This document shows positions 1 to 30,599 of a stretch of DNA of 31,926 nucleotides, in pieces. The notes beneath the pieces were generated by a model. It was not told the origin of the DNA, did no database searches, and was given only the letters and a program-made list of their open reading frames with translations. Numbering within the stretch: position 1 is the stretch's first letter; each line of letters starts with the position of its first letter. The stretch is from NCBI GenBank assembly GCA_964407085.1, contig CAYOUH010000001.1:1-31926 (forward strand), given 5' to 3'. Made by a program: the position numbers and the translations under genes. Source of the DNA: an uncultured Candidatus Peribacteria bacterium. GTDB taxonomy: Bacteria > Patescibacteriota > Gracilibacteria > JBDHUY01.

Positions 1-372
1 GACCTTGCGGAAGTACGGCGACATAGGGGGCAGATGATAGGGCATGCTGGAGGAACGCACGGCATCTACCCCTCGGTCGGCCATCTCGTTCACCTTGTCC
101 TCCTGCTTGGACTTGTAGCCATCCACGTCGCAGATGATGAACAGCTGCCCCGCTTCGGGGAACTTGCGCATGGCGACGTTCTTGACCAAATACTGCAGTG
201 CGGAGAGCGTATCGCCGAAGTGGCCGATGACGAGGTTGGCATCCGGCGTGGTGATGTCGACGCGGTAGGTCAGCTCGTCCTTCTCCTCGACGCTCACGCC
301 CTGGACGAAGATACTCAGCCGGGTGAGGGTTTCGGTGACGAAGGTTTGGAGGAAGGAGGAGATTTCGTTCAT
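1..372 (-). CDS. jag: Jag/EloR (KhpB) RNA-binding protein, KH + R3H domains; 3' end runs off the window
   Basis: Not in the ORF track. Manual translation from ATG 372: MNEISSFLQTFVTETL...NLVIGHFGDTLSALQYLVK...CDVDGYKSKQEDKV...LPPMSPYFRKV. This gives the KH GxxG loop (IGxxGxTLxALQYL), the DVxGY motif and the R3H start LPPMSP. It lies directly downstream of yidC, its usual position. Confidence 0.87.
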   Translation of the reverse strand, partial: MNEISSFLQTFVTETLTRLSIFVQGVSVEEKDELTYRVDITTPDANLVIGHFGDTLSALQYLVKNVAMRKFPEAGQLFIICDVDGYKSKQEDKVNEMADRGVDAVRSSSMPYHLPPMSPYFRKV

Positions 373-438: not shown

Positions 439-1683
439 TCATTTCAGCGTGGACGGGGTCATTTTATTAACCCACAGCTGTTGCGCAATGCCAAACAGCG
501 TGGACATGCCCCAGTACACCGCTACTCCCGCAGGGAAGCTGATCGACATCACGCCGATGACCAGGGGCATGACGTACTTCATGGCCTGGTTCATGGCCTT
601 GTTGGGATCCGCCTTGGTTTCGGTCGATACGGCCTTCTTGGAGGCTTCCTTGGCTGCCCGGCCCACGGTCAGGTGCATCTGGTACCACTGCAGGACCACG
701 AGCAGGACGGGCAGGACGTAGATGTTGGGCTTGGAGAGATCGAGGATACCGAGGAAGTTCGAATTCACGGAGGAGACCGCGAAGCCCTTCAGCGGTTCGT
801 ACAGGTAGTGCGTGCTGCTGAGCTCCAGGCCGTGGGAAACGGCATAGTACAGCGCGATCAAAAACGGCATCTGCAGGAGGAGTGGGAGACAGCTGCCCAT
901 CGGGTTCACGCCGTTTTCCTTCCACAGCTTCATGGTTTCCTCGCCGATCTTCTTGGTGTCGCCCTTGTACTTCTCCTGGATCTCGGCGATCTTGGGCTGG
1001 ACGAGCTGCAGTTTCTTCTGCGACTCCAGGGCCTTCTGGTTCGGGATGAGGAGGATGAGGCGGATGATGATGGTCAGCAGGATGATGGCCCAGCCCAGAT
1101 CGTACCCGGGGAGCACAGAGACCAGCAGGATCAGGAGGTTGTAGAGCGGCTGGTAGAAGAGCAGGTCCCACATCCGTCCCAGGAACCCGCGGTTCTCGAC
1201 CGAGAACGTGGCGGTCAGGGGGTAGTGCACGGCGGCGGCATCCGAGGCGGTCAGGGCCAATTCGTACTGCCCGGGCGTGGAGAGGGAGGTGTGCAGGTAG
1301 TCGAGGGACAGGGTTCCCTCTTCGCCGGCTTTTACCTCAATTCGATCCGAGGGACAGGCGGTTATGCGATCGAGCACGGAGCGCATGTCCACAGGCTGTC
1401 CGTCGCGCTTGAGGGAGACGGAAGAAGCCGAGCAGAGGCCGTCGATGGTCACCAGATTGGCCTCGGGGGAGCCTTCGATGGATGGGAGGGCGTTTTTCAG
1501 CCGTACCTTGGCCGCTTCGCCGGGGTGGAAGGTTTCGCCGGTGGATTCCAGGATAACGGCCCCTGAACCGCTGGCGGGAGTGGGAGTGGCAGGTTCGTCC
1601 TTTTTCCCCGGCATCAGCAGGAAAACGACGATATAGGCGGCGGCGAGGACGAAGGCGTACTTGTAGAACTTGTCGGTTTTCAT
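439..1683 (-). CDS. yidC: Membrane protein insertase YidC/Oxa1 with an N-terminal TM and an extracytoplasmic beta-rich domain
   Basis: Core motifs GWAIILLTIIIRLIL, QPKIAEIQEKY, ENGVNPMGSCLPLLLQMP, AGVAVYW. Start set at ATG 1683 (MKTDKF) rather than 1713. Confidence 0.95.
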   Translation of the reverse strand: MKTDKFYKYAFVLAAAYIVVFLLMPGKKDEPATPTPASGSGAVILESTGETFHPGEAAKVRLKNALPSIEGSPEANLVTIDGLCSASSVSLKRDGQPVDMRSVLDRITACPSDRIEVKAGEEGTLSLDYLHTSLSTPGQYELALTASDAAAVHYPLTATFSVENRGFLGRMWDLLFYQPLYNLLILLVSVLPGYDLGWAIILLTIIIRLILLIPNQKALESQKKLQLVQPKIAEIQEKYKGDTKKIGEETMKLWKENGVNPMGSCLPLLLQMPFLIALYYAVSHGLELSSTHYLYEPLKGFAVSSVNSNFLGILDLSKPNIYVLPVLLVVLQWYQMHLTVGRAAKEASKKAVSTETKADPNKAMNQAMKYVMPLVIGVMSISFPAGVAVYWGMSTLFGIAQQLWVNKMTPSTLK

Positions 1684-1746
1684 GGAAAGCAAGCAAGGAA
1701 AAAGGCGCGGCAAAGTGGCGGAAGTGTACCCGAAAGGCGGTTTTTT

Positions 1747-1755: not shown

Positions 1756-1809
1756 ATTGGGAATATTCTCCTCCTGGGCATGCGCCCCGGAAAAAGACCA
1801 AAACAGAAG

Positions 1810-4539
1810 ATGCTCGCCCTCCTCGAATTCCTGGCTCTCCTGATCCTGCGCCTCGTCCTACCCGCCACTATCGCGACCGAGGTCGCGGGCAAGTTTTCGG
1901 CCAACCCGTTCTCGAGCGTGGACAACTTCATCGTGTTCACGATCTTCTTCGTGCTGACGTGGATCGGGTGGAAGGTCCTCCTATGGACATTCCACTACGC
2001 GTACGAGGCGCGGCAGGCGAAGAAGCTGGTGTATCTGAAAGTCATGCTGCCGCGCAACGACAGTAAGATCGACAAGGAGCAGCAGACCAAGAAGGACTTC
2101 CGAGAGAAGGTGGCCATCATGCACCAGCTCTACCGATCACTGTGGGAAATCCGGCAGCTGAACCTGGAGAACATGATCCGGGTGTTCCTGCTCAAGGTCG
2201 ACAAACTCAGCTTCGAGCTCGTGCTCGAGAACCAGGAGCTGAACTTCTACGTGGTGACCAATCCGTATTTCCAGAGCATCGTGGAGAAGCAGATCACGAG
2301 CTACTACCCCGATGCCGATATCCAGCCGGTCAAGGAGTACAGCACCTACGAACACGGGTACAACCTGAAGGGCTTCTCGTTCCACCAGGCGAAGGAGGGG
2401 TACTACCCGGTGAAGACCTACAAGACGCTCGAGGAAGATCCGCTCAACGGCCTGGCGAACGTGTTCTCGAAGCTCGACAAGGATGAACGGGCAGTGTTCC
2501 AGATGGTCCTGCGGCCGCGCGGGAACGGCTGGCGGAAGAAGGGGCAACGGCTGGCGGAATCGATCTTCAAGAAGGAGAAGAAATCGTTCTTCTCCCACAT
2601 CCCCGGACTCGGGTGGCTCGGGAGCCTGATGGGATTCTTCATCTCGGGGGACACCGGGTCGCTCGGCAGCAACGCTCCCGGTGCCAGCCATGGCGACTCG
2701 TATATCCGCATGCTGCAGCCCCAGGAGGAAGCCGTGAAGCGCATGGGGGAGAAGATCGGCGAACCGGGATTCGACGCCAGCCTCCGTGTCCTGGCATTCT
2801 CGAAGAAGAGCAAGTCGCGCGTGGAGGAAATCATCAACGGGGTGGTGGTGTCGTTCAACCTGTTCCAGGATAATTACAACAACTGGTTCGAGAACCGGCG
2901 CATCCTGCCGCTCGACTGGATCAATACACCCCTGATGTACTACGCCTTCCAGAAGCGCTTCCTGGGCTTCTTCCAGCGGCAGTGCCTGCTGACGCCGGAC
3001 GAGCTGGCGTCGCTGTTCCATTTCCCGGATGCCAACTACAACAAGGTGCCGGTGATCAAATGGCTGCCATACAAGGTGATCCCCGCGCCGCTCGAAACCC
3101 CGAAGGAAGGCATCCTGCTGGGATACAACACGTACCGCGGGGTGAAGACGCCGGTGCACATGCTGAAAAATGACCGCTCGCGGCACTTCTACATCATCGG
3201 AAAATCCGGAACGGGTAAGTCCGCCTACCTCTCGTGGATGGCGCGGCAGGATGTGCGCAATGGCGAGGGCGTGTGCGTGATCGATCCGCACGGCGACCTG
3301 GTGGAAGAGATCCTGTGCTACGTGCCGAAGGAGCGGGTGAAAGCCGTCAACGCATTCGACCCGGCAGACAACGAGCGGCCCATGGCGCTCAACACCCTGG
3401 ACGCCCATACGCCGGACGAGATGGACCGCGCGTCACTGGACGCCACGGAAATCTTCATCAAGCTGTACGGCGACGAGATCTTCGGCCCGCGCATCCAGCA
3501 CTACTTCCGCAACGGCTGCCTGACACTGATGGAGGACCAGGAAGACGGCGCGACGCTGATCGACGTACCACGCCTGTTCGTGGACGAACCGTTCCTGAAA
3601 TACAAGCTGACGAAGGTGAAGAACAACGTGGTTAGATCGTTCTGGGAACACGAATACATCCAGACCGGCGACCGCGAGAAGCAGGAGATGATCCCGTATT
3701 TTTCCGCGAAGTTCGGCCCGTTCATCACGAACACGACGATGCGCAACATCATCGGGCAGTCGAGGAGCGCCTTCAACATCCGCGAGGTGATGGATACGGG
3801 AAAGGTCCTGCTCGTAAACCTCTCAAAGGGGAAAATCGGCGGCATCAACGCGCAGCTGCTCGGCCTCATCTTCGTGAACAAGGTGAACATGGCGGCCATG
3901 GCGCGCGCCGACATGCTGGAAGAGAAGCGCCGCGATTTCTTCCTGTACGTGGATGAGTTCCAGAACTTCGCGACCGACACCTTCGCCACGATCCTGTCGG
4001 AGGCGAGGAAGTACCGGCTCAACCTGATCATGGCGCACCAGTACATCGGGCAACTGGTGAGCAAGACCGCGGGTAGTAGCCAGCAGAGCACGCAGATCCG
4101 CGACGCGGTTTTTGGTAACGTCGGTACCATGATGAGCTTCAAGGTCGGCGCCGAGGACGCGGAATATTTGGCCAAGGAATACGCTCCCGTCCTCTCCGAG
4201 CAGGACATCATCGGTATCGCCAACTACCGCGCGTACCTGAAACTCAATATCAAGAACACCACCAGCCGCGTATTCTCCATGGAAACAATCTGGGACGAGA
4301 CGGGCAAGAAGCGGAAGATCGCCGACATCATCAAGAAGTATTCGCGGCTGAAATACGGAAGGAAGCGCGAGTTCGTGGACGCGGAGATCGAGGCGCGGAT
4401 CGGGATCAGTGATAGCGAAGCGGCGGTTCCCACTGCCGAGATGCCAGGCGCACCACAAGCTGAAGATATGCCAATCACACAAAGCGAAGGGGTGCAAAGC
4501 ACCCAAGAACAACCATCCACGGAATCGACTTCCGTGTAG
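1810..4539 (+). CDS. VirD4/TraD-like (HerA/FtsK superfamily) membrane-anchored ATPase, T4SS coupling-protein-like
   Basis: Two N-terminal hydrophobic segments, Walker A IIGKSGTGKS, VIDPHGDL, Walker B FFLYVDEFQNF, ILSEARKYRLNLIMAHQY and AVFGNVGT, all typical of this family. Start is 1780 or 1810. Confidence 0.85.
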   Translation: MLALLEFLALLILRLVLPATIATEVAGKFSANPFSSVDNFIVFTIFFVLTWIGWKVLLWTFHYAYEARQAKKLVYLKVMLPRNDSKIDKEQQTKKDFREKVAIMHQLYRSLWEIRQLNLENMIRVFLLKVDKLSFELVLENQELNFYVVTNPYFQSIVEKQITSYYPDADIQPVKEYSTYEHGYNLKGFSFHQAKEGYYPVKTYKTLEEDPLNGLANVFSKLDKDERAVFQMVLRPRGNGWRKKGQRLAESIFKKEKKSFFSHIPGLGWLGSLMGFFISGDTGSLGSNAPGASHGDSYIRMLQPQEEAVKRMGEKIGEPGFDASLRVLAFSKKSKSRVEEIINGVVVSFNLFQDNYNNWFENRRILPLDWINTPLMYYAFQKRFLGFFQRQCLLTPDELASLFHFPDANYNKVPVIKWLPYKVIPAPLETPKEGILLGYNTYRGVKTPVHMLKNDRSRHFYIIGKSGTGKSAYLSWMARQDVRNGEGVCVIDPHGDLVEEILCYVPKERVKAVNAFDPADNERPMALNTLDAHTPDEMDRASLDATEIFIKLYGDEIFGPRIQHYFRNGCLTLMEDQEDGATLIDVPRLFVDEPFLKYKLTKVKNNVVRSFWEHEYIQTGDREKQEMIPYFSAKFGPFITNTTMRNIIGQSRSAFNIREVMDTGKVLLVNLSKGKIGGINAQLLGLIFVNKVNMAAMARADMLEEKRRDFFLYVDEFQNFATDTFATILSEARKYRLNLIMAHQYIGQLVSKTAGSSQQSTQIRDAVFGNVGTMMSFKVGAEDAEYLAKEYAPVLSEQDIIGIANYRAYLKLNIKNTTSRVFSMETIWDETGKKRKIADIIKKYSRLKYGRKREFVDAEIEARIGISDSEAAVPTAEMPGAPQAEDMPITQSEGVQSTQEQPSTESTSV

Positions 4540-4561: not shown

Positions 4562-5863
4562 TCAGCGCCTTCCTTTCTTATTCCTCACCGGCTGAGGTTT
4601 TTTGCCAGCATTCGGTACCGTCTTTTGGGGCTTGCTTTTAGGGGCTACGGTCGGACCCTTGCCCTTTTTTCCTTTACTGACGGGGGACTTGGGCAGCACC
4701 CTTCTGGGCCTGGTAGTAGGGGCAGTGGGAGCTTTCTTACTAGGCGTCCGTGCTCCCCGTTTCCTGGCCCCCCGATTCCTCAGAGCCTGCTGAAGCTTCT
4801 TCCTCACCGCCTCTTTTTCGGTGGCAATGCGGACCCGTTCGGCCTCTGCTCGGCGATCGGCATTGATCTTGTCGATTTCCGTGGCGAAATCGGCGGTATT
4901 ATTGCTGACCTGCTGCAGGCCGAAGTGCCACGAGCCTGCCACCTCCTCAGCGAAGAAAACATTCCCGGCCTCTTCCTGGGAAATAAGGAACAGCCGTATC
5001 CCGTTCATGAAATCCTGCCATTTCTCGTTATCGCCGATGCGGGTCGCTTTGTATGGTTTCTTGTCCGTATCGAGAAGCTTGCTGTAGCTGATGTCGATGG
5101 CATCGCCACCATTGGCGTGCATGCTCCGTCCTACCACTGCGGCAGCCGCTTCCTTGCCCTGCATGCGGCCGACGTAGTCATCTGTCCGCACGGCGCTGGT
5201 GATGGCCAGTCTCATGTTTTCAGGAATCCCATACTCGGCCTTCAACCGCCTTACCTCGGTTTCCAACGGGCCGGTCAGGAACGCGTACAGATCGGGGTGA
5301 ACGTGGGAAAGCAGTTTGTATTCCTCGCCTTTCCTGCGGTCCCCACCCTTCTTGTCCGGCTTGGCATGTTCGCCGAATTCGACCGGATCGATGGTGAATG
5401 GGGTGTCGGCAAGTTCCAGTGGAACGACTTTTCCGGCATCGGCCATTTTTTTCAGGATCGCGGCATTGGGAATGGATCTGATATTCAAGTTCTTCGCACG
5501 GATGATGTCCTCGCGGTTGCGTCCTTTCATGCGCTTTTTTTGTTCATCCGTGAGGACGATCCTGCCTAATGCCGCGGACTCTGATTCCTTAGGGGGAAGA
5601 GTGGGCATCAGGCCACGGTCACGGATGAAGGCACTTAGGACCAATCCCATAACTGTACCGGAAGCCAATGTTCCGATGGTCGTGAGGTTGCGGTACGCAT
5701 GCTTGAATTCGCCTACAACGAGAGGAACTTGGTGCCATAGGACGTTATAGACGGCCCGCCGAGTAGCCTCCACGGCATGCAGGATGGCGGGGAGGACCAT
5801 CTTCGGTTGTTCCCGTGGCCCGCCTGGTCCGCGTTCCGGGTTTTGCGGAACATTACTTGCCAT
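4562..5863 (-). CDS. Membrane-anchored DUF5715-like / M15 (LAS) Zn metallopeptidase with a highly basic C-terminal tail; predicted peptidoglycan peptidase
   Basis: ITSAVRT...SMHANGGDAIDISY...EEVAGSWHF matches the Hedgehog/DD-peptidase H...D...H ligand pattern and my recollection of DUF5715 (TSxxRT, SxHxxGxxFDISY, FHI). Hydrophobic segment LTTIGTLASGTVMGLVLSAFI. ATG 5863 overlaps the upstream stop. Confidence 0.65.
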   Translation of the reverse strand: MASNVPQNPERGPGGPREQPKMVLPAILHAVEATRRAVYNVLWHQVPLVVGEFKHAYRNLTTIGTLASGTVMGLVLSAFIRDRGLMPTLPPKESESAALGRIVLTDEQKKRMKGRNREDIIRAKNLNIRSIPNAAILKKMADAGKVVPLELADTPFTIDPVEFGEHAKPDKKGGDRRKGEEYKLLSHVHPDLYAFLTGPLETEVRRLKAEYGIPENMRLAITSAVRTDDYVGRMQGKEAAAAVVGRSMHANGGDAIDISYSKLLDTDKKPYKATRIGDNEKWQDFMNGIRLFLISQEEAGNVFFAEEVAGSWHFGLQQVSNNTADFATEIDKINADRRAEAERVRIATEKEAVRKKLQQALRNRGARKRGARTPSKKAPTAPTTRPRRVLPKSPVSKGKKGKGPTVAPKSKPQKTVPNAGKKPQPVRNKKGRR

Positions 5864-7718
5864 AGGATTCAGTCGTGAGAGGAAGCTTGAAGACCGGCTT
5901 TCCGGCGGGATCATTCATGCCTGATAACAATGTAGCCCAACCGGGTGGGAGGTTGAGCACCATGCGGAATGTAATTGGCTTCTGAGGACGTTTAGTATTA
6001 TCTGGGAAAGTCGTCATCTTCTGGGGACCGGGCAAAGGAACCTTGTCGAAGTCGGGATTGGCCGGGTCGACGGTGATGGCAGGATTAAGCTTCGATAGGG
6101 TATTGCGGATCTCCCGTCCATCGAGAAGCTTGCTGGTTTCCGGATCAGTTACCTGGGAGCGGAGCAGGTGAGCTGTTACGGCGCCCAGGCTCGCGGGCCG
6201 CATACCCTCGGCATAATTGATAACGACCTGGTTGAAGGCGATGGTCGGACGTTCGACGTAGGAAGCGAAGGGGTTCTCTGCGGTGTTTTTCTCTCCGTTA
6301 AATTGTCCCTTGTATCGCGGATCGGCGTATAAGGTCTCGATCAGTTTTACGCTTTCTACTATCCCGAAGAGGCGCAGGGGATAGGCGGCATTTTCCAGCT
6401 CCTTGATATTGACCTCCCCTCCCTTGCCAGCATCCCGTTTGTCATAGTAGCTGCCGTTGAGTCGCGCCATGTACGCGTAGGGATTCACCGCTTTCGTTAT
6501 TTTTCCCGCCTTATTCGTTTCCAGGATGAGTCCTCCCGATCCCCCGTTGTAGGCCAAGACGGCGAGGACCCAAGCGGCATCGCCTTTCTTTGCTTCTGGA
6601 ACAGTAGGCTCCAGCTTGGCAGTAGCGAAGGAATTTTTTAGGTCACGTAGGTATTCCACCGCCCCCCGCATCGCCAACAGCGGGTCGCGGCGCAGATCTA
6701 TGGAGTACCCCTCGCCATTGGCATATACGTCATTGGGTCGCGGCGGCTTATCCTCCACATGACGGAATCCCTGCGCATCGCCGGACTTGAACCGGTTTTC
6801 TAGGGCTGTAGCATTTTGATCATTCGGTTCGACCCATGTCCCATTCCTCGCTCGGACCTGGGTGAGGGGAAAGGTACGAGGCCCATTCCATTGTGTGGCC
6901 GGCATGAATTGGACGCAGCCTGCGGCTCCGGCGCGCGAGATGCCGTTCGGATCGAAGAAGGTTTCGACCAGGATGATCTCTGGGATCCATTCGGGTACCG
7001 AAGAGTCGACCTCCTGGGCGACTTTCTTGAAGTGCTTCTCGTACTGCTTGTAGGCCTGCAGCCCAGTACCGACAGAGGTTTCCGTAGGAGCCCTCCCTAT
7101 GAGATCCCGGAAGCTGGCCGGCATGAAAGTCTCTTGTCCGTCACGCTTATAGGACAACAATGCACTGCGATTCATCTCCGACAGGGCCTCCGTTGGTCCG
7201 GTCGGGTCGACGTTATAGCGCATGTATTGGTAGATCCGACGCAGGATGGCGCGGCGCTGGTGACGGATTGCGGTCTGGTTCCCAGACAATGCCCCATCGG
7301 GGACATAGGTATCGTAGACCAAGCGAGTGAGATCGCGGATGATCCCAGCATGGGGATGGGCAAATCCCTTGTTAGCAGACTCAACCCAATCGAGATCTTC
7401 CTCGGTCTCCGTCCTCGTCTTGGCATCGTTGGTTACCGCGCGTTTGGCGGATAAGTACTTCGCTAGGGGAATACCCAGAGCCGGGGCCATGAAGAATTTC
7501 AAGAGCGTGCGCCGGCCGATGCGCTTCAGTTGCTTATCCGACGGATGGGGCTCGTCCAATAGCTTTTTCACCCCAAAATCACGACCAAAGCGCAACGCTG
7601 TAAGAAAGCCGTGTCCCAATCGTCGAGCAATGCGTTTGGCTGTCCACTTGCGCTGCCGCTCAATATCAGGTGTAGGGGGATTGTTTTCCTGTGATGGCTC
7701 TCGCTCGACTGAGGACAT
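5853..7718 (-). CDS. Lytic transglycosylase (SLT/MltD-like) with an N-terminal extension
   Basis: Motif I ILVETFFDPNGISRAGAAGCVQFMPAT (putative catalytic Glu252, nt 6963-6965), DLRRDP...GAVEYLRDL, WVLAVLAYNGG and ENAAYP. The C-terminal LSKLNP...LNLPPG resembles the degenerate LysM-like region of MltD. Confidence 0.85.
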   Translation of the reverse strand: MSSVEREPSQENNPPTPDIERQRKWTAKRIARRLGHGFLTALRFGRDFGVKKLLDEPHPSDKQLKRIGRRTLLKFFMAPALGIPLAKYLSAKRAVTNDAKTRTETEEDLDWVESANKGFAHPHAGIIRDLTRLVYDTYVPDGALSGNQTAIRHQRRAILRRIYQYMRYNVDPTGPTEALSEMNRSALLSYKRDGQETFMPASFRDLIGRAPTETSVGTGLQAYKQYEKHFKKVAQEVDSSVPEWIPEIILVETFFDPNGISRAGAAGCVQFMPATQWNGPRTFPLTQVRARNGTWVEPNDQNATALENRFKSGDAQGFRHVEDKPPRPNDVYANGEGYSIDLRRDPLLAMRGAVEYLRDLKNSFATAKLEPTVPEAKKGDAAWVLAVLAYNGGSGGLILETNKAGKITKAVNPYAYMARLNGSYYDKRDAGKGGEVNIKELENAAYPLRLFGIVESVKLIETLYADPRYKGQFNGEKNTAENPFASYVERPTIAFNQVVINYAEGMRPASLGAVTAHLLRSQVTDPETSKLLDGREIRNTLSKLNPAITVDPANPDFDKVPLPGPQKMTTFPDNTKRPQKPITFRMVLNLPPGWATLLSGMNDPAGKPVFKLPLTTESYGK

Positions 7719-7743
7719 GGAGGCTACATGAAAAGCATCCTCT

Positions 7744-7759
7744 CAGGATACCATTCATG
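7744..7759 (-). promoter_or_regulatory. Extended -10 promoter element CATGAATGGTATCCTG upstream of the lytic transglycosylase; identical copy at 24423-24438
   Basis: Contains TGgTATCCT, 26 nt upstream of ATG 7718. Exact 16-bp match to the element upstream of the response regulator. Confidence 0.55.
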
Positions 7760-7830
7760 GCTTCTCTCCGCGATTCATGAAAGACTGCGAACACCTGTTC
7801 CGCTTGACGTTTTATCTAAAAGTCCGCCCC

Positions 7831-8601
7831 CTACTGCGCCAATCTCTCCCACTCGCCACGTGAGAAGATGAGCTTGATTTGCGTATCTGAGACATTGATT
7901 ACGCGGACACCCTTCAGGATCGCGTCACGGTTGGCGGTGAGGAAGGTGTAGCGCTTCTGCATCGTGGAGAGCGCTTGCGAATACTGCCCATCGAAGCGCG
8001 AGATGGCACGGCGGGTTTCCTCAAAGGGTTCGATCTGAGCCTGGATTTGTTGCATGCGATCGAAGGCGAGCTGCGCAGCGTCGGGGACTTGGTTTTTCAG
8101 GGCCTCGCTGTAGGCCTTCTTGGCCACCTTAAGATCGTTATTGAGCGTTCGGATATTCGCGCGATAGTCCTCGGTCAGGGCTTTGTTTTCCGCTCGGATG
8201 CGGGTAATGAGGGTTGCCTCGGTTTGCAGCTGTTCGACATAGAGATCCAGCGCTGCCGCGCGGTCGGAGCTATCGTTGAGCGCCTTCAGGACATCGAAAG
8301 CCAGGAGTTCGCCAGTAGCGCGGACACGGCGGATATTGTCGCTGATGAGGCCCGGTTTTTCGTTCGTGTCCTCATTGAAGAAGAACCCGGCGGAAACACC
8401 TTCGTGGAACCCGTTAGGGATCTTGTCCGCCTGGTACGCGTTCTGCTCTACCACTCCTGCGGCAGCCGCCAAGCCCTCATCGTAGCTGACCGCCTGGGCT
8501 GTCGGGTTCGTGGACAGCGCCTGGAGCGTGACGATGATAAACGAAAGGAGGAAGGAGAAACCGAGGAGGCGTCTATAGATGGGCGAACCTGGGGTAACCA
8601 T
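7831..8601 (-). CDS. Hypothetical membrane-anchored coiled-coil protein
   Basis: Long ORF with N-terminal TM (RRLLGFSFLLSFIIVTLQAL) and a helical heptad-like body. Start 8601 chosen because a promoter lies at 8655-8682. Confidence 0.7.
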   Translation of the reverse strand: MVTPGSPIYRRLLGFSFLLSFIIVTLQALSTNPTAQAVSYDEGLAAAAGVVEQNAYQADKIPNGFHEGVSAGFFFNEDTNEKPGLISDNIRRVRATGELLAFDVLKALNDSSDRAAALDLYVEQLQTEATLITRIRAENKALTEDYRANIRTLNNDLKVAKKAYSEALKNQVPDAAQLAFDRMQQIQAQIEPFEETRRAISRFDGQYSQALSTMQKRYTFLTANRDAILKGVRVINVSDTQIKLIFSRGEWERLAQ

Positions 8602-8654
8602 GGGAGGCGCCGAGGGCGCAGAGAAACGATAGAAAACGCGGAAAGACAACAAGC

Positions 8655-8682
8655 ATTCTAGCCTAGATGTATATCCGGTCAA
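8655..8682 (-). promoter_or_regulatory. Sigma70-type promoter TTGACC-N16-TAGAAT
   Basis: Near-consensus -35/-10 pair about 54 nt upstream of ATG 8601. Confidence 0.6.
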
Positions 8683-29537: not shown

Positions 29538-30599
29538 TTACAAGTTCCCCAAATACTTCTCGCGGTTGAGGTCGTGTTCCTGCTGCGTCCGGGCGTAGCG
29601 GATGTTGCCTTGCCTGTCGTGAAGGTAGTACCAGTAGGGGGAATCCTCGGGGGACACGGCGGCGGCGATACTCTTCTCCCCGGGGTTGCAAATCGGAGTG
29701 GGGGGGAGGCCCTTGTTCTTGCGCGTATTGTACGGGTTATCCTGCGCGAGTTGTTCGGCGGTTATGGGGTTTTGCCAATCGTTCGTGGCATAGCGCGTGG
29801 TGGCATCGACCCCGAGGAACCATCCGGCATCGAGGCGCTTCCAGAGGATCCCCGCGACGATGGGGCGTTCTTCGTCGGTGATCGTTTCCTTCTCCACCAT
29901 CGAGGCCATGATTATCACGTCATACAGGCTGCGCTTACCAGAGGCGATTGTCGGGCGATAGGTCGAGAGGGTTTGCGATGACTGGTCCAGGAGGTCCGCC
30001 ACGAATCCGGCCACATCGAACGCGTCGGGGTCGACGAGGTAGGTTTCCGGGAAAAGGAAGCCCTCGAAGTTGCGGTCTGGGATGGAGGATAGGAGGGAAG
30101 AATCCAGGAGGCAGGTCCGTAGGCATGCAAGAAATTCGTCCCCCTTCACGAGTCCTTTTTCACGAAGGAGATTATCGATTTGCTTAATGGTATAGCCCTC
30201 GGGGATGGTTATGCGCGTGGTGCTGGCCACCTTGCCCGCCAGCCGGGAGGCGATATCGGGAATGAGTGCGCTGGGCTTGAGCACGTAGTCGCCTGCCTGG
30301 ATGGAGGCTTCCCAGCCTTGGGACCTCACATAGCGCGAAAAAGTGGCGGCCTCAGAAATGATCCCTTCATCCTCCAAGAGGGAGGAAACCAGGGCGAGTG
30401 TGGATCCTGTCGGAATAGTTATTTTCTCGGAAAGCTTCGTATCCTGGGAGGCAGGAATTTCTAAAGCTCTCTGGTACCCTAGGGTGTCGTAGGCGAAATA
30501 TCCGCCGGTTCCGATGAGGGCCAGGATAAACAGGGCCAGAATGGTCTTCCCCATTCCCCCTTTGCGCGTGGAGCGCGTGCGGAAGGCTGGTTGCGACAT
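29538..30599 (-). CDS. mltG: Endolytic transglycosylase MltG (YceG)
   Basis: N-terminal TM, TIPEGYT, EGFLFPETY, ASMVEKE, LGVDAT, NPYNT...GLPPTPICNPG. Confidence 0.93.
   Translation of the reverse strand: MSQPAFRTRSTRKGGMGKTILALFILALIGTGGYFAYDTLGYQRALEIPASQDTKLSEKITIPTGSTLALVSSLLEDEGIISEAATFSRYVRSQGWEASIQAGDYVLKPSALIPDIASRLAGKVASTTRITIPEGYTIKQIDNLLREKGLVKGDEFLACLRTCLLDSSLLSSIPDRNFEGFLFPETYLVDPDAFDVAGFVADLLDQSSQTLSTYRPTIASGKRSLYDVIIMASMVEKETITDEERPIVAGILWKRLDAGWFLGVDATTRYATNDWQNPITAEQLAQDNPYNTRKNKGLPPTPICNPGEKSIAAAVSPEDSPYWYYLHDRQGNIRYARTQQEHDLNREKYLGNL

Follow-up and report, generated by a model that had tools for sequence, protein, structure and literature searches.

The closest described counterpart of the two genes reported here is a single-chain protein of ~485-620 aa that carries an SLT domain (PF01464) and a DUF5715 domain (PF18979). 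Genes A and B are two head-to-tail open reading frames (ORFs) on the minus strand of the window, the whole 31,926-nt stretch analyzed, which is contig C1 of a 1.0-Mb assembly (58 % GC, 87 % complete) of an uncultured Candidatus Peribacteria bacterium. Gene A (5853..7718) encodes a 621-aa SLT-domain lytic transglycosylase with a Pfam SLT match, and gene B (4562..5863) a 433-aa membrane-anchored, putative zinc peptidase of the DUF5715/M15 (VanY-LdcB-like) type; both lie where a first-pass annotation of the window, made from the sequence alone, had placed them, and all coordinates given below for these genes and their upstream spacer are on the minus strand. The pair and the single-chain proteins have the same two catalytic domains, the same domain order, the same invariant H/D/E/H residues and an N-terminal membrane anchor or signal. 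In contrast to the fusions, the domains here are encoded by two genes, and both products have an N-terminal hydrophobic segment. Gene A also has an insertion of ~100 aa in the SLT core and a C-terminal region of 200 aa, and gene B has an 88-aa polycationic tail.

Several other known systems resemble one or both genes. The best matches of gene B are LdcB, VanY and VanXYc (MEROPS M15B) and the phage L-Ala-D-Glu endopeptidases (M15C: T5 endolysin, LysB4, LysECD7 and ChiX). The S-x-H-x-x-G-x-A-x-D and R motifs of these enzymes align with gene B. However, gene B is only 14-18 % identical to them (TM-scores 0.33-0.48), its H...D spacing is one residue longer, extra residues follow the Asp, and an N-terminal anchor and a basic tail are present; its bond class (DD-carboxypeptidase, LD-carboxypeptidase or endopeptidase) is not readable from the sequence. 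Like gene A, E. coli MltD is a membrane-associated SLT-family lytic transglycosylase, and the first-pass annotation called gene A MltD-like. This label was rejected, as gene A is not a lipoprotein, scores 17.6 bits against the NCBIfam MltD equivalog (NF008050; cut-off 508) and has no LysM domain detected by Pfam even at an E-value of 10.

The VirB1-type hydrolases (pIP501 TraG, with SLT and CHAP domains, and pCF10 PrgK) and the hydrolase pair of S. epibionticum (PMC12102498) also combine glycan and peptide cutting, act in a monoderm-type envelope and open the own wall, and the pair recalls them in that a type IV coupling protein (T4CP) gene adjoins it. The differences are that the peptidase here is of the M15/LAS type, not CHAP, NlpC-P60 or M23, that the pair lies outside a type IV secretion system (T4SS) cluster and that the T4CP adjacency is not conserved. 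TagX of the Acinetobacter type VI secretion system (T6SS) is an inner-membrane-anchored VanY-superfamily zinc peptidase with a wall-facing catalytic domain that acts on the cell's own peptidoglycan (PMC5061870). TagX is encoded within the T6SS cluster, is required for it and has no partner transglycosylase gene, whereas the pair has no conserved machine-specific context.

We propose that genes A and B encode a co-expressed, divided bifunctional hydrolase, the two parts of which would cut the producer's own wall side by side at the membrane. We put the probability of this reading at roughly 0.55. The functional coupling of A and B on which it builds is well supported. The two genes are adjacent and in the same order in both related loci, L004 (gene A 95 % and gene B 89 % identity) and L003 (34 % and 30 %), and their domains are fused in four other genomes. 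When 401 genomes of the phylum were sampled, DUF5715 was found in 16, including the genome of the pair. In four of the other 15 (G074, G067, G075 and G208, members of four different families), SLT and DUF5715 are found in one ORF with SLT first, and both domains were confirmed by Pfam on the proteins. No SLT match was found beside the other stand-alone DUF5715 genes in the sampled genomes.

Homology among the four fusions extends over the full length of the proteins (~450 residues). Each begins with a signal peptide, a lipoprotein-like signal (assigned by eye) or a membrane anchor, which fits a predicted extracytoplasmic, membrane-proximal action. When compared using hhalign, the gene A family matched the SLT core of the fusions (92 % probability, E-value 5.6e-7) and the gene B family matched their C-terminal DUF5715 domain (92 %, E-value 6.3e-7). 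Because the fusions join SLT and DUF5715 in a single chain, ordered as in the pair, they are Rosetta-stone evidence that both activities work together. The linkage of the two activities and the functional handle on DUF5715, both suggested in the first-pass annotation, are thus supported by the related loci and the fusions. In the ESM Atlas, look-alikes of one fusion point to proteins of ~490-507 aa with this architecture in numerous clusters, labelled most often as Acidobacteriota and Actinomycetota; this suggests that the SLT-DUF5715 fusion is also present in other phyla. The same look-alikes also point to SLT+VanY fusions. Judged by sequence comparison, genes A and B are a split and highly divergent version of a bifunctional hydrolase architecture that is already catalogued in its fused form but uncharacterised.

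Genes A and B are real genes under purifying selection (dN/dS against L004 of 0.14 and 0.25, respectively). Word-based searches found only the 95 %-identical copy of gene A on L004 and, with A, B and the DUF5715 alignment as queries, returned almost nothing useful for the pair. An exhaustive phmmer search with the gene B domain against 1.84 billion representative proteins gave a single relative (P0003, 30 % identity). In 400 genomes of the phylum, the A and B profiles gave only marginal, short matches to the core motifs and no family member. The gene B domain as a single-protein query gave nothing in 60 class-level relatives, nor did pattern scans turn up a relative among JGI metagenome contigs, IMG/VR or GTDB genomes. 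Synteny with a genome of the same family (G001) was also considered and rejected; none was seen, and the SLT gene of G001 is in an unrelated region of 45 % GC.

The DUF5715 profile (PF18979) gives gene B 26.6 bits on the protein (cut-off 26.8) and 27.6 bits in a six-frame genome search, and the match spans only profile positions 78-161 of 171. All of the gene B motifs listed in the first-pass annotation (ITSAVRT, SMH249, D257 and SWH313) are present. When 21 DUF5715 domains, drawn both from the phylum and from the protein database and mostly clear matches to PF18979, were aligned, only four columns proved invariant, and gene B has all four residues (H249, D257, E307 and H313); S223 and R226 of gene B are nearly invariant across the same domains. 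Among the 100 nearest ESM Atlas clusters of gene B, 98 are DUF5715 and the rest are Peptidase_M15. The 21-domain profile matches solved M15 enzymes, with VanXYc at an E-value of 1.2e-4 followed by YodJ/LdcB and VanY-like proteins. In VanXYc, YodJ and LdcB, the R-T and S-x-H-x-x-G-x-A-x-D blocks line up with those of this profile, and all are in gene B.

A first AlphaFold2 model of gene B, built on a two-sequence alignment, was unusable (pLDDT 52), but the model built on the 21-sequence alignment was usable (pLDDT 81.3, pTM 0.79). Foldseek matched this model to Bacillus anthracis LdcB with a probability of 0.99. In VIA-align, the nine best matches were all M15 enzymes (Z 7.5 to 4.1), with LdcB at 7.5 and VanY, LysB4, LysECD7 and ChiX at 5.8-6.2, while unrelated chains scored 3.6 or less. 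Because the individual scores are middling, the M15/LAS fold call rests on the agreement of the evidence and not on one number. Gene B is thus predicted, with moderate support, to be a DUF5715 domain with an M15/LAS zinc-peptidase fold, as first annotated. The catalytic domain (aa ~135-320) is at 4904..5461, and the codons of its key residues are at 5186-5188 (R226), 5117-5119 (H249), 5093-5095 (D257), 4943-4945 (E307) and 4925-4927 (H313). A literature search found no article that mentions DUF5715. The pair and the fusions place this family among VanY/LdcB-type zinc peptidases with a lytic transglycosylase partner and so give it a concrete, testable function.

Gene A is a genuine SLT-domain (family-1/GH23) lytic transglycosylase by its sequence features, as had been annotated. 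It matches Pfam SLT (PF01464) with 41.8 bits (cut-off 21.3; E-value 9.2e-11), in two stretches because ~100 aa are inserted between the G-x-x-Q and AYNGG motifs. The motifs reported before (E252-T253, GAAGCVQFMPAT and LAYNGG at aa 388-393) are all found. When a profile of three gene A family members was compared with Neisseria LtgA (Slt70-type), E252-T253 aligned with the catalytic 'ES' and GCVQFMPAT with GLMQVMPAT; E252 is invariant among the three members. The SLT catalytic core (aa 222-405, with the insertion) is at 6504..7055 and the Glu252 codon at 6963-6965. Gene A is the sole PF01464 match in the assembly, and SLT genes are patchy in the class (52 of 121 genomes). The C-terminal region (aa 420-621; 5856..6461) is conserved with the L003 homologue and has no Pfam match even at an E-value of 10. 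The ESM Atlas look-alikes of its 200 aa score 0.83 or less, many of them with LysM; a LysM-like nature of this region is therefore a weak lead, as such look-alikes are too weak to count.

The N-terminal hydrophobic anchors claimed for both proteins differ in strength. That of gene B is clear, a transmembrane anchor (aa 62-80; 5624..5680) with a Kyte-Doolittle 19-residue mean of 1.69; the equivalent segment of P0003, the distant homologue of gene B, is less hydrophobic (1.20). In gene A the segment (TLLKFFMAPALGIPLAKYL, aa 71-89, with RR ahead; 7452..7508) is weak with a mean of 1.21, and that of the L003 homologue is weaker still; it may be a signal-anchor. A Tat-like GRRTLLKF motif (aa 68-73; 7502-7517) precedes this segment, and the L003 homologue keeps its LLK. 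Tat export of gene A through RRTLLKF was set aside, as TatC was not found in the assembly, and is left open given the 87 % completeness. Pilin-type anchors were rejected for both genes, since Pfam found no VirB2/T4SS_pilin-like N-terminal hairpin in the N-terminal 130-200 aa of A, B and P0003 even at an E-value of 10. At the other end of gene B, a basic, proline-rich tail (aa 346-433; 4565..4828), recognized by its composition, has 30 K+R, 2 D+E and 12 P in 88 residues and no Pfam match. The tail of P0003 is similarly basic, whereas the fused SLT-DUF5715 proteins have no such tail.

The first-pass annotation described an 11-nt overlap between the two genes. The 3' end of gene A reads ...TAT GGC AAG TAA, ending at 5853, and an in-frame ATG GCA AGT AA. 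of gene B begins at 5863, so that the gene A stop is inside the gene B start (ATGGCAAGTAA, 5853..5863) if the ATG at 5863 is used. The overlap stands on this condition, but the start of gene B is not fixed. Its frame is open from an ATG at 5914, which would give a 62-nt overlap, down to the TGA stop at 4562, and a third ATG at 5800, the start picked by the gene caller in L004, would give a 52-nt gap. The 21 codons ahead of the ATG at 5800 (5863-5800) have four differences between the window and L004, all four non-synonymous, and this is compatible with either a leader or a disordered N-terminus of gene B. Shine-Dalgarno motifs are uninformative for the choice, because such motifs are found ahead of just 60 of the 348 long ORFs. 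The L003 copies of the genes, from a distant relative, share 4 nt (ATGA). With any of the three starts, the genes have the same orientation and a gap of no more than 52 nt, and therefore a single transcript is the simplest reading. Evidence of co-transcription or expression was sought, and the only 'RNA' run was probably DNA and gave short contigs only.

In the proposed divided hydrolase, A and B would form a small operon with its own promoter region, and both proteins would be made together because the genes are tightly spaced or overlapping. Gene A would cut the MurNAc-GlcNAc bond via Glu252 and leave 1,6-anhydro-MurNAc ends. In gene B, His249, Asp257 and His313 are predicted to bind zinc, and Glu307 and Arg226 would assist catalysis on the peptide stem. 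The two proteins would act next to each other at the outside of the cytoplasmic membrane of the producer itself, like the single-chain SLT-DUF5715 proteins, and possibly in a complex. In that position they would open or remodel the cell's own wall during growth or division, or to let envelope-spanning structures be inserted. The natural split is convenient experimentally, because the two activities can be produced, mutated and titrated independently and complex formation can be tested directly.

Several points weigh against this proposal. With only two related loci, the conservation of the pair rests on a small sample. The Pfam score for DUF5715 is borderline, and the fold matches are of middling score (TM 0.33-0.48, Z 7.5). 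LdcB and VanY are carboxypeptidases and trim stems rather than open the mesh; as the closest structural relatives of gene B include these two, wall opening by gene B is not assured. The route of gene A out of the cytoplasm is unclear, because its export signal is weak and poorly conserved. Finally, a cis element shared with a pilus operon hints at a role more specialised than general remodelling.

This element is in the 112-nt spacer upstream of gene A (7719..7830), between orf283 and A, which has two terminator-like hairpins (7803-7787 and 7752-7734) and a promoter-like element. The spacer has one difference from L004, compared with 6 of 49 aligned bases in the adjoining 3' end of orf283, and three CATGAA/TTCATG half-sites were also observed in it (7719-7830). 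The near-invariance, the half-sites and the small hairpins make it look like a regulated promoter region. The shared element, CATGAATGGTATCCTG-N3-GGATG (7736..7759), includes an extended -10-like TGGTATCCT and an ATCC-N5-GGAT dyad. Its 16-mer CATGAATGGTATCCTG has exactly two copies in the 1.0-Mb assembly, one ending 26 nt upstream of the gene A ATG and the other (24438-24423) upstream of a response-regulator/pilB operon, and the likeness between the two copies extends to 21 of 24 positions, dyad included. A type IV pilus is encoded 9-17 kb from the pair. By a rough estimate, chance would give ~0.2 identical 16-mer pairs per 32-kb window, and far fewer if these must be promoter-proximal and in the same orientation. 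However, extended -10 boxes (TGGTATAAT/TGGTATACT) are common in this genome, and a near copy (CGCGAATGGTATCCTG) is found on contig C98 (~250-280, plus strand), 7 nt after a consensus TGGTATAAT box. This copy precedes a likely CCA-adding enzyme gene (recognized by eye from the N-terminal sequence only), and because that is a housekeeping gene, the core of the element may be just a promoter variant. For these two reasons, it stays doubtful that the hydrolase and pilus operons are switched on together by one regulator through the 24-nt dyad-containing element. If they are, the split SLT + M15 pair would be the long-missing wall-opening module for pili crossing the thick Patescibacteria wall, and such passage would allow DNA uptake or contact with a host. 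Of all the leads, only this promoter-region element could raise the interest of the locus.

On its other side the pair adjoins a VirD4-like (T4CP) gene (1780-4539, plus strand), on which gene B converges with 22 nt between the two stop codons. This gene has an N-terminal extension of ~440 aa without a Pfam match. Each of the four genomes with a fusion has a full-length homologue (41-43 % identity), which lies either on a different contig or 66 kb from the fusion. VirB4 was not found in the 87 %-complete assembly; PF03135 had no match, and a weak AAA_10 match that was followed up is FtsK. Homologues of T4CP in Patescibacteria are mostly orphan, with only 148 of 5,713 near virB4, and in S. epibionticum the T4CP is not essential for epibiotic growth, while a peptidase and a lysozyme adjoining virB4 are essential (PMC12102498). 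A hydrolase pair dedicated to a machine is thus a known idea, but the locus studied here is without that virB4 context, and the VirD4-like protein may be an orphan T4CP with another role. With a convergent neighbour, an adjacency conserved in none of the four genomes and no VirB4 found, the link to T4SS-like machinery made in the first-pass annotation was not upheld, and the pair was not assigned to the VirB1-type, T4SS-associated hydrolases.

The pair does have more A/T-ending codons than the VirD4-like gene, as noticed at first. The GC content at third codon positions (GC3) is 0.64 in gene A, 0.65 in gene B and 0.853 in the VirD4-like gene, with a genome median of 0.753. The outlier is the VirD4-like gene (96th percentile); A and B are at the 16th-18th percentile of all ORFs and among the lowest 7 % of genes of at least 400 aa. 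The accessory origin drawn from this difference is compatible with the low GC3 and the patchy distribution, but only weakly, as the GC3 values are in the range of the genome and the codon-usage distance from the genome mean is ordinary (62nd percentile for A and 86th for B).

Three other explanations were weighed against the divided own-wall hydrolase. One is that the pair is a dedicated wall opener for an envelope-spanning machine of the cell itself, most likely the pilus and less likely the adjoining orphan VirD4-like ATPase, by analogy with VirB1/TraG/PrgK of monoderm conjugation and TagX of the T6SS. The 16-nt exact element found ahead of only this and the pilus operon, the almost invariant spacer that bears it and the 22 nt to the convergent VirD4-like gene all favour such a role. 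It also has precedents in the SLT+peptidase VirB1 homologues of monoderms, in the S. epibionticum peptidase and lysozyme (PMC12102498), and in TagX, a membrane-anchored VanY-superfamily endopeptidase required for the T6SS (PMC5061870). We nevertheless consider it possible but unlikely. The core of the element recurs near the likely CCA-adding enzyme gene, and neither protein has a pilin-like module. The T4CP homologue is on another contig or 66 kb off in all four fusion genomes, T4CPs are rarely near virB4 in Patescibacteria (148 of 5,713; PMC12102498), and no VirB4 was found in this assembly. The neighbours of the fusions are housekeeping genes (GluRS, FtsH, RadA, FKBP isomerase, MPG, RuvB and radical-SAM genes), without pilus or T4SS genes.

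These same neighbourhoods bear on the main idea of the first-pass annotation, in which the target of the pair is the wall of the host at the contact site of an epibiont. Under this reading, nutrients would be released or a channel opened. The organism, found in wastewater and activated-sludge metagenomes of several studies, belongs to the Patescibacteria (closest PilB relatives 55-60 % identical) and has a ~1-Mb genome. A review proposed that patescibacterial lytic transglycosylases compromise host envelopes (PMC11665869), a published speculation which this idea parallels. In addition, the 88-aa polycationic tail of gene B could bind anionic envelope polymers, and patchy distribution and low GC3 are often seen in accessory genes. 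However, the anchor of gene B looks uncleaved and that of gene A is at most weak, there is no secretion signal, toxin-delivery domain or immunity-like gene, and the look-alikes suggest this architecture in phyla, such as Acidobacteriota and Actinomycetota, that are not known to be epibiotic. No result supported host-wall breaching, and the membrane anchoring and the housekeeping surroundings of the fusions are mildly against it; we regard it as quite improbable. A hydrolase pair beside a VirD4-like gene is no evidence of a host-breaching device, since the two are not kept adjacent and T4CPs of this phylum are typically orphan, and the value of the locus for Patescibacteria biology is mostly cautionary. 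Less probable still is that the pair comes from a phage or another mobile element, as what remains of a module for lysis or entry. Low GC3 would fit such an origin, PHROG endolysin and lytic tail protein families match gene A, and the best ESM Atlas look-alike of its C-terminus is a viral cluster (0.83). However, the PHROG matches cover only the SLT core, on which ground a phage origin of the pair was set aside, and gene B matches none. No relatives were found in IMG/VR, and the flanks (YidC, T4CP, a vitamin transporter, SIMPL and UvrD) are without phage or integrase genes. Strong purifying selection, a conserved regulatory spacer and an ordinary codon-usage distance also argue against a phage remnant.

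Elsewhere in the window, a YceG/MltG gene is present at 29538-30599, in line with the earlier statement that the organism also has MltG. Upstream of the spacer, orf283 (7831-8682, minus strand) has an N-terminal transmembrane helix followed by ~200 aa that appear by eye to be coiled coil and are without a Pfam or PHROG match. The 3' end of orf283 is also found upstream of the SLT gene in L004, and orf283 may be a partner of the hydrolases or regulate them. In G074, an M23 peptidase gene (L028, 12939-14231, plus strand) with a long N-terminal region and weak matches to two coiled-coil-type Pfam families is ~1 kb from the fusion, an arrangement that loosely recalls the layout of an unknown gene plus hydrolase at the locus studied here.

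SLT matches with 2-10 in-frame TGA codons were observed in genomes of the same class (G046, G493, G460, G448, G053, G041, G042, G034 and G030), which suggests TGA-recoded lineages among these relatives. The genome of the pair uses TGA as a stop, as gene B ends in TGA. At the start of the window, a plus-strand ORF (34-1566) is probably spurious (GC1 0.84, GC3 0.575), and the true gene there is YidC (439-1713, minus strand), with a GC3 of 0.835 and a Pfam 60KD_IMP match at an E-value of 1.4e-52.

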